From an uncultured Nitrospiraceae bacterium (GTDB lineage: Bacteria; Nitrospirota; Thermodesulfovibrionia; Thermodesulfovibrionales; Dissulfurispiraceae), in NCBI GenBank assembly GCA_963727805.1, contig CAVSHF010000003.1, forward strand, positions 1,024,001 through 1,088,000: a stretch of DNA of 64,000 nucleotides, read 5' to 3'. Position numbers: made by a program. Positions within the stretch are counted from its first letter, which is position 1. Each line of letters opens with the position of its first letter. Of this stretch, positions 42,001 through 48,000 are shown piece after piece.

Positions 42001-45000
42001 CGCGAGCTTAGCATCGCCTTTTCTCTATGTCTTTGTTGGGCACAAAAAGGGAAGGCTCAATCTTATTCGGCATTTGGCCGCCATAATTGCCGGAAGAACA
42101 CTTACCCTGAAGGATATCAGCTATTTCAGGACGGACGAAATCACGATCGAAGGCAATAGCCACATCCAGCTCGATGGTGACTACGCCGGGACAACACCCG
42201 TGAAAATCGACGTTGTACGCAATGCCCTAAATCTTATAGTGCCTAAATAAATAGTTATTGGGGGTTAACAATCGACCTCAGCGCTCCAAGGTTCCTAATA
42301 ACAATCTTGCCGCTCACATCCTTAATGAGTCCCGATTTTCTAAATCTGCTCAGGACCCTGATCGATGTCTCGACGGTAGTCCCTACCATCTCCGCAATAT
42401 CCTGCTTAGTAAGTCGCATTGCAATCGCAATCTCTCCCGCAGTGGACTTTTCGCCAGTCTTTTCTGCGAGTTTCAAAAGGAGGGCTGCAATCCGCGATTC
42501 TACCCGTTCGAGGGCGACATTTTTTAGCGTATCGTGAAGTTCTCGGACACGTTCGCCTAAATTGGCGGTAATATCATACATGATGTTCGGAAACCTTTCG
42601 ATGATACGCATCAGGTTATGGCGGGATATCCGGTTTGTTTCACAATCCCGCATCGCAATGGCGTTTGCCGGATATGGAAAGCCCTTTAAAACTGCAAAAC
42701 CTCCAAAAAATTCACCTGGAGATAGTAGCTCAATGATGATTTCCTTGCCATCATGGGATAACTTTGTGATCTTCACCTCCCCGTCAAAAAGAACGTAGAA
42801 CCAGTTCGAGGGGTCTCCTTCGGAAAAAATCGTCTCTTTCTTGCGAAAAGATTTTCGCTCGATGTAGGAACCAATCTCACCAATTTCTTCTTCGCTGAGT
42901 CCGGAGAATAAGGGTATCTGCCTAAGATATTTATTGTCAGTCATTTTAGTAATGCATAATCCTGAATGGATAGTTTCTGAGCAGTTATCCCGATGCCTCA
43001 ATTAATATAAATCAATGAGTTATAATAGTCAATATCATTGAAATCATTTGTCAAGCCAATTTAGAAATGTCTTCTTTTTCACAAAAATAGAAACCTCGAC
43101 AGTAAAACGCCAATTGTTTTCGCCGCTGTCATTGCAAATCTTTTCTCTTATACGATTCTTGCTTTCATGGATGATTAGCGCTAGATCGATAATAATCGTC
43201 TTTACTTCCAGACACTCAAGGCGGTTATCTCAGACGTGAGGCCTTATTCCTGAAGTCATCTTCAGAATGACATTTTAAGGAATTATCCAGCTTTAAAATG
43301 AGAAAACTATCAGGGAATAATTATTCAAATTAGGGTAAGGTAAGATTAGTATGACAACTACTGACCACCATCTCTGCCACTGCCGCTGCTCATCAATTTC
43401 TTTTCCACATCATCATAAAGTTTTATATGTACTTCAACATTACTCTTGTCCTGTAGAAAATAATTGATATACATTACATCCTGTCTTCCGAATGTGATCT
43501 GTCTGTAAAAAGGTCTCACTTCGTATCCGATAATTTCGGAATTGTAGGTAAGTATCTTGCTTATCCAGGACTCCATAAAATCAGGATGCCAGCTGACGAA
43601 TCTCTCCGCCGTTTCTAAGGCCTCCTTGGCCGGCAGGTCTTTTATGACCCGATAGTCGAATGCAGGCGCAAAAATATCAAAAGTATATCCGCTGTCCTTC
43701 CGAACGAGGAATGCCACAGTAGCAATATCATCATAATGGTTTGCACCGTACAATATCACCGTAAAGTTGCCTGTTATCCCAGTCTTATCCGCGAGCTGCG
43801 TCTTAAGATAGTTCTGATTAAGAGAGCACGCTCCGCATAAGAGAGCGAATAAAACAACGGAGGCGGCAATGAGCATTGTACCAACTCGTCGCATATAAAT
43901 ATGATACAAATTTATATTCCAACAAGCAAATCCCGCATCATTTCATCCTGAATAAACAAAGAAAAGCTGTCAGCCTTTCATTCATCCATATTTTCTGAAG
44001 AGATATGAGAGTGCTCGTTTGCTTCTGGGTTTGACACTAGTCCGTCCAACTCCTTGCGAAACTGAACAGCTTCATCGGGAGTGAGATATAGCTGAGGTCC
44101 TCGGACTGAATTCTGTTTATGAATATCAAGCATTCTCATGATAGGCTACTAAAATAATTGCACATAGCCAGATAGTAGTGGATCTGGTTGCGCTGTCTGA
44201 CCCGACGCATTGCAATTATTAAATATCGAGTTTCGCCCGGCTCTATCCGATCTGCCCGCTTTTGGTGCTGCTCTGCACAGCATGGTACAAGCGTTCCACC
44301 AAGGCCTGATTGTATCCATGTGAGGTCATGTTGGCGATAATGCGTCCTCTGATGGGCAAGCCGAGGAGATAGAGGTCTCCGATCAGGTCCAATATCTTGT
44401 GGCGCACGAATTCGTCAGGATAACGAAGCTCCGTATTGATGACCTTGCCGTCGTAAAGAATGATGTGGGAATGAAGATATCCGCCGCCGACCTTTCCAAG
44501 CTTCTGGGCCATCTCGATATTCTCAAAGGTGTTGAAGGAGCGGGCAGGGGCTATCTCCTTTACAAAAGATTCGCTTTCAGGATTGAATGTAAGAATCTGT
44601 TCGCCTATAGGTAGCGGATAGTCAACCCTCATCGATATTTCGAACCCCTCAAAGGGCTCCGCATAGAGATGCTTTTCGCGCGGCTCCTCGTGTCCCACTC
44701 CTATCTTGCGGCGAATGACCGCAACCTTGGTGAAGGCAGGCTGTTCATCTATCCCTGCCTCTTCTATGAGGTCGCAGAAATCCTTGGCGGACCCATCTAT
44801 GTTCGGTATCTCCGCTTCAACCTTTATGAGCACGTTGGTTATGCCGTACATGGAAAGAACTGCCATCAGATGTTCAACGGTGCGCACCCGCTGCCTACCG
44901 TTGTTCAGGGTGGTAGAATTGGCAAAGAAGGTCTTCGATGCGGCAGTCTGGGTAAAATCCTCAAGGGAAGTGATATGTCCACGGATGTTATGGCCGTCAA

Positions 45001-48000
45001 GAGTTTGAAAGATGATCCCTTCGTTGATCCCGAGAGGACTCAGAATGACACCGGTGTTCCGGCCGCTCAGGAGCCCTATCCCGTTCAGGAGCACATTTCC
45101 TCTGAGTGTGCGCTGAGGCATAGGGGAATCCACTACTTCCACCATCCCCGCCTGCACCGAGAGGTCGGCACTGACGATCTCAAGCTCGGTATCCGAGGGC
45201 AAGGTCGCGCCGCTTCTGGAAGACCGGTGCTTAAGGGCGGACGCCACCTTATCGAGTAAAACTTCCAGATGTAGGGGTTTTTCCAGAAAATCGTAGGCTC
45301 CGGCCTTTATGGCGGCAACTGCCGCCTCGATACCGGCATGTCCGCTCATCATGATGACGGGGAGCTCGGGGCAGCGTTCATGCAGTCGTTTCAGGATTTG
45401 CATGCCGTCCATACTCGGGAGCCAGATATCCAACAGGACGAGAGAGGGCTCCATGGTGTCGAGCCTCTGCCACAAGCTGTCAGCATCCGTAAATACGACG
45501 GTCTGATACCCCTCGTCCTTCAGGATGTCCGCTATGGTGGAACAGATGGAAGATTCGTCGTCTACTATATAAATAGGGTTCATATAAGACACCTGATGTT
45601 CCTCTCGGTCTGAATTGAGGATAGAGTAAAACAATAAAGGACGATTGTCAAGGACATGCTGTTTGCGCCTGTACCAGGATAATCAAGATACCACATATCG
45701 TTTCTGAAGACGCCCATAATGATTTTGCCAGATCCGTTAGCAGTATCAGGTCCATTTATTTAATACGATAACCCCAAGTTTTGTAATGACCGGTGCGGTT
45801 AGGTCAATACATAGATCCTTTATCAACCTTTCGATTTTCCCCTAGAGGGAAATAGAGTAAAAAAGCGGAGCCTCTTTCAGGGGCGCTGTTGACGGAGATT
45901 AAACCTCCGTGGTCCTCCATAATCTTCTTCGCGAGCGACAGTCCAAGACCAACACTCCTCTTCGATATCTTTGTGGTGAAAAAAGGTTCGAATATCTTAT
46001 CGATGACTTCCGGTGGAATTCCTGCGCTGGTGTCCCTGATTTCAACTACTGCATATTGTTGCGATTCCACCGATCTCATGGAAGTGGATACGAACAGTTC
46101 GCCCCCCTGTGGCATAGCTTCGACGGCATTGGTAATCAGATTGCCGATTGCCTGCTTGGTCTGCTCCTTGTCGAGCATAATATCAGGGCTATCAGAGAAC
46201 GTGGTTTTAATAGTTATGTCGTGTTCCTTACACACTTCCTTATAGCTGTTGAGTACTTCATCAATAACGGCATGAAGATTATGTCTTTCGAGATGAGGCA
46301 CAGCCATTCTTGAATAATCCAGGACATCCTTCAGTGTCTGTTCGAGGCCCAGCACCTCTGCGACGATAGCGCCTGCATATTCTTTTTCCATTGTTCCATC
46401 TTTCAGTACAGAGAGCAAACGCCTTGCAAATCCCCCGACTGAGGTCAGGGGATTTCTTAGCTCATGAGCAACATTCGCCGATATCCGACCGAGGGCCGCC
46501 AGCTTTTCACTTTGCGCGAGTTGTTCCTGGATATCGACGTACTCGGTTATGTCCCTGACGGCTGCAGTAACGAGCAAGCCTTCATAAGTCTGAAGAGGAC
46601 TCAGACTAATATCGGCCCTGAATTCAGATCCATCCTTTCTTAACCCGAAGATTTTGGTACCAGACCCCATTGTGCGGACGCGAGGACTCGAAAAAAAATC
46701 CATGACATTTTTTTTATGACGATGCCTGAAACGTTCCGGGATGAGGATATCTAATGTCTTGCCAGTCAATTCGTCCGAGGCATAGCCGAAAAGCCTTTCG
46801 GTCTGGGCATTGATCATAACAATTGCGTTATCGCTGCTGATGAAAATCATCGCATCTGGCGCAGCTGCAAGAAGCTCTTTGTAGCGCCTCTGAATTCGTT
46901 GGAATTCAACCTCGCAGGTCTCCAGCTCATTGAGCTTGTGACGCATATCATCAAGTTCCTGCACCAGCTGGTCTTTTGATTTACAGATATCGTTCATCGT
47001 TCATGCGGTCTCCTTAGTGAGATGATTACTGGGTTCCCTGCTGGCAGTATCGGCAGCGGACAGCCGCCATTTGCGATTATGAGACATCTCGTTTACTTCA
47101 GATTCCTAATAAGATGCTAGGAATTTGCTTTTCAGGAGCGTATTCATTTGCATTGCTTGACACATTGACTTGCATCTCCTTCAGCACTGCAAGACTGTCC
47201 GACTGCATAACAATAGTTTTTCTCGTCCTTGGAGCAGCCACAAATAACCGTGTCGGCAGCAACGGTCTTATCTTCGCTGCTTTCATGAGTCCGTGTCGAA
47301 CATGTCGTGTTTTGTATATCCCACGATCCATCATTACACTTATACCCATAACCGGACTGGCAGGTGAATGATCCCGAAGAGTAGAGAACTCCGTTATATT
47401 TGCAATTCTCCATGGCCCATCCTGTGCCGGTAATCAGACTCACAACAGCAATCAATATTACTCCCCTGATAAGTTTGTTGCAGTTCATAATTCATTCCTC
47501 CCTGTTCGCTCTCTTACCGCAGATATTTCTCAAGCCGTCCATGAGCACCTTGAAACCCTGCCTTGTTACAAATGTGACAACCCGCGGCCATATTAAAATG
47601 ATAACGAAGGATTTGCGCAAAAGATAGCATCTTCCCAACTGCGATGGCCGGATGAGATATTCTGTATACAGATTAGAATGCGTATTCCAAATTTTTTGGA
47701 CACTGCTTCAGAACATGAACCCTCTCAGCCGGGCTAAGCCCGGAGGTTCAGGCCTCTGGCATAGCCTGCTATGCCCTTTGCCGTTGTTGGTCCTTGATAT
47801 ATCTCCAAATGACTTCTTCGTCTACCTTGCCTACTGTTTCAGCAAAATAGCGGCCATGCATACTACGGGGCGAAAGCTGTGGGACTGGAAACTACGTCTT
47901 TCAACAACAATCCTTCCTAAAGTTAACGCCTGCTAAAGACGGTCACTCCGCACTGCTGGAGCGTTGACATGAGTGCTGCTTTTCAAGGGAAAAATTCGAG

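Follow-up and report, generated by a model that had tools for sequence, protein, structure and literature searches.

In the 64,000-nucleotide window analysed here, an uncultured Nitrospiraceae bacterium encodes a protein in which an NtrX-type receiver is fused to a complete LpxC deacetylase domain (REC-LpxC). We propose that REC-LpxC may be a phospho-gated lipid A deacetylase to which the kinase NtrY would signal, carried in this host as a single-gene cassette, and we give this reading as a whole slightly less than an even chance. The gene and its parts are as follows, with positions counted along the window.

44243..45583, minus strand: REC-LpxC fusion gene, 446 aa from an ATG common to the homologues (ORF, Pfam, NCBIfam)
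45245..45574, minus strand: NtrX-type receiver, residues 4-113, with D8, D9, D52, S80 and K102 (Pfam, NCBIfam, structure)
45428..45430, minus strand: codon of the predicted phospho-acceptor Asp52 (LLDIWLP motif; D in 120/120 homologues)
45119..45229, minus strand: linker, residues 119-155, with a conserved LPSDT-x-LE-like core (homologue alignment; low pLDDT at 121-136)
44285..45115, minus strand: LpxC domain, residues 157-433, with E237, H238, H395, K396, D399, D403 and H422 kept and the pocket remodelled (alignment, predicted fold)
44927..44956, minus strand: clade-specific 10-residue insertion in the LpxC domain, residues 210-219 (alignment)

A single reading frame holds Response_reg at residues 4-113 (E value 1.6e-29) and LpxC at residues 157-433 (E value 3.7e-72, model positions 1-267 of 268), and these are the only two Pfam domains of the protein. 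The whole LpxC domain scores 243.5 bits with PF03331 and 205.5 bits with TIGR00325, for which the cut-off is 187.25. The fusion is widespread, with about 3000 homologues in all. Both domains are present in every one of the best 120 protein clusters, which share 82-96% identity with REC-LpxC, and five pairwise comparisons gave dN/dS values of 0.04-0.20; the common architecture and the purifying selection rule out an assembly or frameshift artefact and a pseudogene. The preliminary description of this DNA had reported a receiver and a full LpxC in one protein with the catalytic and metal-binding residues kept, the same architecture in relatives, and the presence of TVEHL, HKILDxxGD and a late His in the LpxC domain, all of which is borne out. 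The AlphaFold2 model (pLDDT 83.9, pTM 0.70) gives no confident placement of the receiver-enzyme interface, the linker having a pLDDT below 50. The homodimer prediction returned a score of 0.00 and was counted neither way. A terminator-like site at 43979-43961 was dropped, as the count of such sites is at chance level.

The residues that form the acidic pocket, the phospho-Asp, the Ser/Thr switch and the Lys of the receiver (D8, D9, D52, S80, K102) are invariant in 120/120 homologues. NtrX is the best receiver match both in NCBIfam and among 107 receivers of the host, and by structure the receiver aligns with that of NtrX over 117 residues (Z 22.6, rmsd 0.9, 46% identity). The whole-protein NtrX model NF051870 scores REC-LpxC at 121, below its cut-off of 600, and the receiver tree is poorly resolved, with two divergent fusions outside the NtrX group. 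Judged by these comparisons, the receiver of REC-LpxC derives from NtrX.

The predicted fold of the LpxC domain matches LpxC with Z 37.4 and rmsd 1.7 over 273 aligned residues (Foldseek E value 2e-29), and H238, H395, D399, E237, K396 and H422 are invariant in 38/38 and 120/120 fused homologues. Relative to plain LpxC, the pocket carries the replacements H19>L172, G193>N351, F194>T352, S211>Y369, A215>H373, K262>M419 and G264>S421, with residue numbers transferred through the P. aeruginosa LpxC alignment; H19, S211 and A215 are positions that we take to be canonical for the substrate pocket. T352, M419, S421, L172, Y369 and H373 are found in 37-38 of 38 clade members, which thus lack the canonical pocket residues. 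The residue corresponding to T191 (E. coli number) is Ser in 35/38 members of the fused clade and Thr in the others. In E. coli numbering, the zinc ligands of LpxC are H79, H238 and D242 and the catalytic residues E78, K239, H265 and T191 (excerpts of PMC13333357 and PMC10254716), while the pocket roles of F194, K262 and M195 are taken from an excerpt of PMC10254716. The insertion at residues 210-219 is missing from 71/72 rows of the plain-LpxC set, the one exception belonging to the fused clade and being cut by a contig end. The invariant pocket changes had no place in the preliminary description. Within the fused clade they could lower activity or shift the substrate.

In a sample of 63 genomes from one phylum, each genome has one LpxC, and in 32/63 that LpxC is the fusion, all 32 having been checked as REC-LpxC. 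These fusion-only genomes are related to one another, and a single event may underlie them all. Of them, 30/32 have lpxB and 5/5 of those examined have lpxA; in two loci lpxK lies three genes from the fusion. With no other LpxC in 32 genomes that retain lpxB and lpxA, the fusion is able to fill the LpxC role in lipid A synthesis; the lipid A role proposed earlier is upheld at the level of the clade, the host gene being a second copy. In a search that scored at most 26 candidates per genome, NtrY was found in 32/32 fusion-only genomes and an NtrX orthologue in 0/32, whereas NtrX is kept in 27/27 plain-LpxC genomes of the same sample that have NtrY. At the level of loci, ntrY stands without a following ntrX in 16/16 fusion loci and is followed by ntrX in 4/4 plain loci. 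The same swap, NtrY with the fusion and no NtrX, recurs in 5/5 Nitrospinota and in 5/5 genomes of a third class, and most of the Nitrospinota genomes sampled yielded no LpxC other than the fusion. Because fusion genomes keep NtrY without NtrX while plain-LpxC genomes with NtrY keep NtrX, NtrY is likely the kinase of REC-LpxC.

The host encodes a plain LpxC elsewhere, as had been noted before (G000:C3:1463373-1464257), and its NtrY (G000:C5:1155951-1157984) has its own NtrX alongside, on a contig that differs from that of the fusion. The host fusion is an accessory copy beside plain LpxC and NtrYX, and its distribution among relatives is patchy (3/61); on paper, given the plain LpxC and this patchiness, it is dispensable. 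Ahead of lpxB the host has an oxidoreductase-aminotransferase pair, presumably the GnnA/GnnB arrangement. An accessory copy is also present in a cultured Desulfopila strain (L009). Two Desulfocapsaceae bins, which also lack NtrX, and 3/11 Desulfobulbia carriers have the fusion without plain LpxC; the two bins may simply miss a contig, and all these cases were left out of the sole-copy evidence.

The cluster lpxC-DUF4390-ntrY-ntrX was found in 10/10 plain-lpxC loci read (DUF4390 confirmed in one) and appears to be ancestral. Architectures are graded: longer intermediates, among them REC-AAA+-HTH-LpxC and REC-HTH-LpxC, were seen with Nitrospinota and the third lineage, and the AAA+ and HTH modules decay stepwise among the fusions. 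In L240, ntrY lies 11 bp upstream of a REC-HTH-LpxC gene, the only adjacent case among the loci read; in G122 the distance is 4.2 kb. All 41 fused LpxC domains fall on one side of a branch with SH-aLRT 100 in a tree built, like all our LpxC trees, by a quick method. As part of the reading that we hold at just short of even probability, with NtrY signalling to the enzyme and a cassette in the host, the fusion may have arisen from this cluster when NtrX joined LpxC and the sigma54 AAA+ and HTH modules were lost. Support for a SAR324-like lineage as donor of the accessory clade was not firm enough to retain it: in the LpxC-domain tree the accessory clade sits within the SAR324-like sequences with weak support, the fork is left open by the full-length tree, and monophyly of the SAR324-like sequences is not rejected by an AU test (p 0.122).

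In the mechanism that we propose, NtrY, a membrane kinase with a periplasmic DUF4390 partner, would signal straight to the enzyme and not via transcription. NtrY would sense the state of the envelope and phosphorylate Asp52, as profile and sequence suggest. The receiver, through the conserved linker and the insertion, would then change LpxC activity in cis, with CheB-like relief of inhibition somewhat favoured over inhibition. The enzyme would deacetylate the LpxA product and set lipid A flux, as its sole-copy status in relatives suggests. The host gene would be a one-gene cassette gained by horizontal transfer, giving the cell a signal-gated LpxC in addition to its constitutive one; it would draw on the host NtrY, which it would share with NtrX. 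Excerpts of two papers report control of lpxC transcript levels by NtrYX in alphaproteobacteria (PMC12444477, PMC7240162), and an excerpt of a third describes LapB and MurA as able to control LpxC allosterically (PMC13333357). A bolder version, which we consider unlikely, is that the transcriptional NtrY-NtrX-lpxC circuit of envelope control has collapsed to one phospho-gated enzyme, the sole LpxC of whole lineages and a portable one-gene plug-in. On arrival in Nitrospirota or Desulfobulbia it would dock onto the conserved NtrY of the host, and that sensor could then turn on an additional LpxC whose substrate pocket has been rebuilt; lipid A would change within seconds in amount, and possibly also in acyl or sugar composition.

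The alternative kinase lies next to the fusion, and two upstream features bear on it.

45804..46997, minus strand: soluble PAS-HisKA-HATPase kinase gene, 397 aa, outside the conserved unit (Pfam)
45623..45651, minus strand: promoter-like element TTGACA-N17-TACTCT, at the 5' edge of the DNA common to relatives (45662)

A PAS histidine kinase gene does precede the fusion on the same strand, 220 bp upstream, as the preliminary description stated; the claim that the two form a two-component pair is not supported. Were this FixL-like kinase the cognate sensor, LpxC would be under oxygen or redox control in this strain. No terminator-like site was found between the genes, the kinase has no adjoining receiver gene of its own, and its PAS domain resembles heme-PAS sensors. 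However, no orthologue was found near the fusion in G028 (fusion 95% identical) or G057 (90%), in 39 other fused loci, or in 39 metagenomic fused loci with at least 1.4 kb of upstream sequence, five of which have an unrelated kinase (25-33% identity). Related kinase cores are present in 17/60 relatives, and of these 17 just one carries the fusion. The H-box of the kinase is unlike that of NtrY. Another kinase of the host shares its H-box type and precedes a single-domain receiver that is of a different type; host genes for single-domain receivers lie at C3:2219865 and C4:26355. No receiver lies within 1.5 kb of the kinase's relatives in 11 loci, so that the idea of a single-domain receiver for it rests on one host paralogue. 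The fusion also has the promoter-like element, a strict pattern for which matches 35/76 upstream sequences, although its -10 box matches at 3/6 positions and the element is missing from the consensus-scan list. Contigs from RNA runs, from relatives about 94% identical, have loose ends at 45662 in three runs, which is the same upstream boundary; they carry no strand or start information, may include DNA carry-over, and were left out of any statement on expression or habitat. Of the loci examined, those of this genome alone have the two genes side by side, the genes do not co-occur across genomes, and the NtrX-type receiver tracks NtrY, for which reasons the adjacent kinase was rejected as partner and its role as sensor is highly improbable. 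By the loci compared, the fusion gene is a unit that moves alone with its own promoter-like element.

Other alternatives retain NtrY and differ in what the receiver or the enzyme does. The receiver might set the location or lifetime of LpxC, by inner-membrane docking on NtrY, oligomerisation or protease exposure, and not its rate. The NtrY profile fits this equally well, the linker is flexible in the AlphaFold2 model, and excerpts of PMC12444477 and PMC13333357 give proteolysis as the main control of LpxC in E. coli and mention a proposal that Ght localises LpxC to the membrane in Neisseria; yet the conserved linker core and the insertion confined to the fused clade hint at a fixed intramolecular contact, and we think this alternative unlikely. 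Fusion of adjacent genes could also arise without regulatory gain, and the stepwise decay of AAA+ and HTH would suit a frozen remnant, phosphorylatable yet without control of the enzyme, serving NtrY as a phosphate sink or in feedback, and possibly informing the kinase of LpxC level or substrate occupancy. In fusion-only genomes, however, no other NtrX-like output is kept, so NtrY would signal to nothing, and the receiver is under purifying selection even in hosts with their own NtrX; a remnant is decidedly unlikely. Finally, the host copy might make another product, its pocket picking another acyl chain or a diamino-sugar precursor and so altering the structure of lipid A and not its amount, or might act on a non-lipid A substrate. 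The invariant replacements in the tunnel and at the hexose and UDP-binding sites point that way, as do the retained plain LpxC and the oxidoreductase-aminotransferase pair of the host. Against it, the same pocket belongs to the only LpxC of the 32 genomes with lpxA/lpxB and must accept the normal lipid A precursor there, and acyl choice in lipid A is set mainly by LpxA; we strongly doubt a different product.

We found no description of REC-LpxC in the literature, although a table entry may exist in the 2006 and 2010 censuses of response-regulator outputs; two recent reviews, which list proteolysis, transcription and binding partners as controls, mention no fused or receiver-controlled LpxC. 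LpxC, a major antibiotic target, determines the flux into lipid A, and a natural receiver-LpxC would offer a soluble single-chain system for studying its allosteric control. There is debate over the signal that NtrY senses and over its core output; phospho-gating would give this kinase a direct output at the envelope, within reach of an assay of two purified proteins.

CheB, PleD/WspR and RpfG are response regulators with enzymatic outputs and, like the fusion, combine a receiver and a catalytic domain in one chain; their catalytic domains work on signalling proteins or second messengers, whereas the output of REC-LpxC would be the committed step of an outer-membrane biosynthesis. The bifunctional LpxC-FabZ (NF009667) likewise joins LpxC to a second domain, but its partner is a C-terminal dehydratase; FabZ is absent from the fusion, which scores 175 against a cut-off of 465. 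Plain LpxC (PF03331, TIGR00325; structures from P. aeruginosa, E. coli and A. aeolicus) has in common with the fusion the fold (Z 37), the zinc ligands and the catalytic Glu, His and Lys, and differs from it in lacking the N-terminal receiver, the 10-residue insertion and the invariant substitutions of the acyl tunnel and of the hexose and UDP pockets. The LpxC controls described in an excerpt of PMC13333357 are FtsH/LapB/YejM proteolysis and LapB or MurA binding. NtrY-NtrX is closest in its signalling parts, as the REC-LpxC receiver is nearest to NtrX by HMM and structure and the co-occurring kinase has the architecture and H-box of NtrY; excerpts of PMC7240162 and PMC12444477 report that NtrYX affects lpxC and LPS. 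That known control of lpxC is transcriptional, and indirect in R. sphaeroides, while the fusion lacks the AAA+ and Fis-HTH of NtrX and has an enzyme as its output. In Desulfovibrio vulgaris, DVU2931/DVU2934 includes a sigma54-type response regulator with lpxC as its single target, and the orthologous operon of S. fumaroxidans has lpxC immediately upstream (excerpts of PMC3333781); this system, whose DVU2934 may be an NtrX orthologue, acts through transcription and as separate proteins, where REC-LpxC unites receiver and enzyme in one.

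The results from domain analysis indicate that the fusion combines a receiver and an LpxC enzyme in one chain, as the preliminary description had proposed, with the receiver and catalytic residues intact. The gene, its domains and the adjacent features are:

Window 44243-45583, minus strand: REC-LpxC fusion gene (446 aa), both domains in one frame
Residues 4-113 of the fusion: receiver domain
Residues 157-433 of the fusion: LpxC domain, complete
Window 45651-45623, minus strand: promoter-like TTGACA-N17-TACTCT
Window 45804-46997, minus strand: PAS-HisKA-HATPase kinase (397 aa), 220 bp upstream of the fusion, same strand

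The fusion passes the TIGR00325 cut-off for LpxC, and the host encodes one further LpxC, of the plain type (i.e., without receiver), together with lpxA, lpxB and lpxK. Of 3108 homologous clusters, the best 120 all contain both REC and LpxC, at identities of 82-96%; the nearest with a name stems from a Nitrospirae assembly, which suggests the phylum of the host. In these homologues, D8, D9, D52, S80 and K102 of the receiver and E237, H238, H395, K396, D399, D403 and H422 of the LpxC domain are invariant (120/120). Compared with five relatives, dN/dS ranges from 0.04 to 0.20 in the receiver and from 0.09 to 0.16 in the LpxC domain. The AlphaFold2 model (pLDDT 83.9, pTM 0.70; alignment of 64 rows) agrees with LpxC structures (Z 37.4, rmsd 1.7, 273 aligned). 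The top structural match of its receiver is Brucella NtrX (Z 22.6, rmsd 0.9, 117 aligned, 46% identity), with the next receivers within 1 Z.

The neighbouring PAS kinase had been described as the two-component partner of the fusion. It is not a conserved one: it has no orthologue beside the other fusions examined, does not co-occur with them, and carries an H-box (NPLTSVGGFARR) unlike that of the membrane sensor kinase NtrY (NPLTPIQLSAER). In the host's order sample, the fusion is found in 3 of 61 genomes, and the two other carriers (fusion 95% and 90% identical) have different flanking genes and lack a full-length kinase orthologue. At 39 other distinct fused loci, no kinase gene stands directly upstream; five of them include some kinase within the locus, at no more than 30% identity. 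Among 80 metagenomic fused loci, 39 have at least 1.4 kb of upstream sequence; five of these contain a kinase (25-33% identity in each case), and one of the five ends within 0.5 kb. Cores related to the PAS kinase occur in 17 of 60 relatives, and only one of the 17 has the fusion, about 100 kb apart. DNA homology with the two other carriers ends some 80 bp before the start codon of the fusion (window 45662). Within these shared 80 bp lies the promoter-like element, the -10 box of which is weak and which a consensus scan did not list; the strict pattern is present in 35/76 upstream sequences. Because the flanks differ, no kinase is conserved, and the shared DNA ends so close to the gene, with a promoter-like element, the fusion gene moves by itself.

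One host kinase with the same type of H-box has, as its downstream neighbour, a single-domain receiver that belongs to a different class. The PAS domain of the soluble kinase (window 45804-46997, minus strand) is nearest to the heme-binding PAS domains of FixL and DosP, and has an aligned His that we take to be the heme ligand of such domains; possibly, the kinase is an oxygen sensor feeding single-domain receivers. Elsewhere in the window, genes for a prismane/CO dehydrogenase, a 4Fe-4S ferredoxin and a pyridine-nucleotide oxidoreductase (49655-53372, minus strand) form what is presumably a cooS-cooF-type cluster. Two Crp/Fnr-type regulators (39530-40240 and 42255-43001), a TMEM175-family potassium channel (48469-49032, plus strand), and biotin synthase-like and BioW proteins (37103-38071 and 40489-41265, both plus strand) are also encoded, with a DAGK/YegS lipid kinase gene overlapping bioW. 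Three minus-strand ORFs had no Pfam match (38554-39240, 43358-43909 and 47144-47488), the last encoding a small protein rich in Cys, the start of which resembles a signal peptide.

The fusion can serve as the sole LpxC of a cell. Exactly one LpxC match per genome (63/63) was found in the phylum sample for G015 (one chromosome of 4.26 Mb), a group that we take to be SAR324. This is a plain enzyme in 31 genomes and, in 32 (all checked), a fusion of the remodelled-pocket clade, which shares the altered substrate-pocket residues of the window copy. The fusion-only genomes keep lpxB (30/32) and lpxA (5/5 tested); in this sample nusB is often downstream of the fusion, and lpxK-def-DUF192 precede it in two loci. 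For the phylum to which a Nitrospina record belongs, a single LpxC match was obtained in 73 of 75 genomes; in 65 of these it lies in a frame of 670-797 aa, and the eight loci read encode REC-AAA+-LpxC or REC-HTH-LpxC. A third class has plain lpxC or a more canonical REC-LpxC (seven loci checked). In two bins, one of Leptospirales and one of Oligoflexales (L010, L018), the remodelled-pocket fusion is likewise the sole LpxC match, and no NtrX match was found in either.

The window copy belongs to this clade with a rebuilt LpxC pocket. The 38 clade members were compared with 72 rows of plain LpxC, one of them a fused-clade member cut by a contig end, three further rows without the N-terminal motif being left out. 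The members have a 10-residue insertion and the changes H19>L, T191>S, G193>N, F194>T, S211>Y, A215>H, K262>M and G264>S (E. coli numbers, carried across via the P. aeruginosa alignment). Of the positions changed, H19, S211 and A215 belong to the canonical substrate pocket. F194 forms part of the lining of the hexose pocket, and K262 does so at the UDP site (PMC10254716). Most fusions outside the clade keep the canonical pocket. Since it belongs to the sole LpxC of 32 genomes, the remodelled pocket must, judging from gene content, turn over a lipid A precursor there. The fusion is accessory in Nitrospirota (3/61 genomes) and in Desulfobulbia (11/121, eight of the 11 also with plain LpxC). These accessory copies group tightly as a single clade (SH-aLRT 100), and NtrX is kept in all five carriers tested; the host has a DUF4390-ntrY-ntrX cluster on contig C5. 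On host contig C3 (L396:2045-5305), genes for a Gfo/Idh/MocA oxidoreductase and a DegT aminotransferase stand directly before lpxB and kdtA, presumably a GnnA/GnnB arrangement, and the host may make a diamino-sugar lipid A.

By sequence comparison, the receiver of the fusion is that of NtrX, the sigma54-type regulator (REC-AAA+-HTH) served by NtrY, and it co-varies with NtrY. Of the 107 receivers encoded by the host, that of NtrX ranks first after the fusion itself (142.7 vs 107.1 bits); the receiver tree, resolved in small part, places two divergent fusions outside the NtrX group. Fused representatives at 50% identity form a graded series of REC-AAA+-lid-LpxC (650-736 aa), REC-HTH-LpxC (491 aa) and REC-LpxC (412-461 aa). 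The GAFTGA motif is found in 0/34 of the fused representatives and in 5/5 unfused NtrX proteins, and in a quick tree with some long branches 41/41 fused LpxC domains fall on one side of a branch (SH-aLRT 100). In 10/10 plain-lpxC loci read, genes for a kinase resembling NtrY and a regulator resembling NtrX come after lpxC; these loci are not a random sample, six having been picked for LpxC and receiver matches. DUF4390 in between was confirmed in one locus.

In the 63-genome sample, the members of which are kin and not independent, NtrY is present in 32/32 fusion genomes and 27/31 plain-LpxC genomes. An NtrX orthologue (at least 48% identity) is found in 0/32 and in the same 27/31, with at most 26 candidates scored per genome and NtrX still found in plain genomes with as many; two fusion genomes have a 44% match on another contig, within the range of other sigma54 activators. 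Where flanks were read, ntrX does not follow ntrY in 16/16 fusion loci and does so in 4/4 plain loci. NtrY without stand-alone NtrX also occurs in 5/5 Nitrospinota and 5/5 genomes of the third class, and in locus L240 the end of ntrY is separated by 11 bp from a following REC-HTH-LpxC. Because the carriers are kin, fusion and NtrX loss represent a few events, not dozens. In most fusion-only genomes read (L262, L264, L265, L268-L270, L272-L276), the orphan ntrY lies directly after a ccmE-like gene. The NtrY match of one Nitrospinota genome (G162, L365) spans only residues 4-614 of 740; the C-terminal part may carry a frameshift or have diverged. A third-class genome (G245; L248, L249) has both an lpxC-ntrY-ntrX cluster and a canonical-pocket REC-LpxC, a possible transition state.

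In the sequences compared, the fusion combines an intact receiver, an intact catalytic centre and an NtrX origin with sole-copy status in relatives, where an otherwise partnerless NtrY is retained. The explanation we place first, at slightly less than an even chance, is that NtrY would phosphorylate Asp52 and that the receiver would act in cis on the LpxC domain. Activation would be the more likely sign, because CheB-type regulators offer an analogy and a gated second copy would be most useful if it added flux. Control of LpxC localisation or turnover by the receiver is an unlikely alternative, and a receiver that is passive or gives feedback only is improbable. We would give slightly less credence to an altered product; the pocket is rebuilt in the window copy and has to sustain cells with no other LpxC. 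The PAS kinase as cognate sensor has its position next to the gene in its favour and its absence beside other fusions against it, and is very improbable.

The words 'fusion' and 'fused' are absent from both LpxC-related reviews examined, and no description of a receiver-LpxC was found in the literature searched, which covers neither supplements nor the censuses of response-regulator output domains from 2006 and 2010. The fusion is real and gives a response regulator an enzymatic output that is apparently undescribed; the preliminary description holds for the enzyme and not for the kinase pairing. In the reports cited, NtrYX reduces lpxC transcript and LPS in C. crescentus and also, by an indirect route, in R. 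sphaeroides (PMC7240162, PMC12444477), the DUF4390 protein PlrP modulates an NtrY-family kinase (PMC13001219), lpxC is the single target of a sigma54 regulator in D. vulgaris (PMC3333781), and LpxC activity is altered by the binding of LapB and MurA (PMC13333357).
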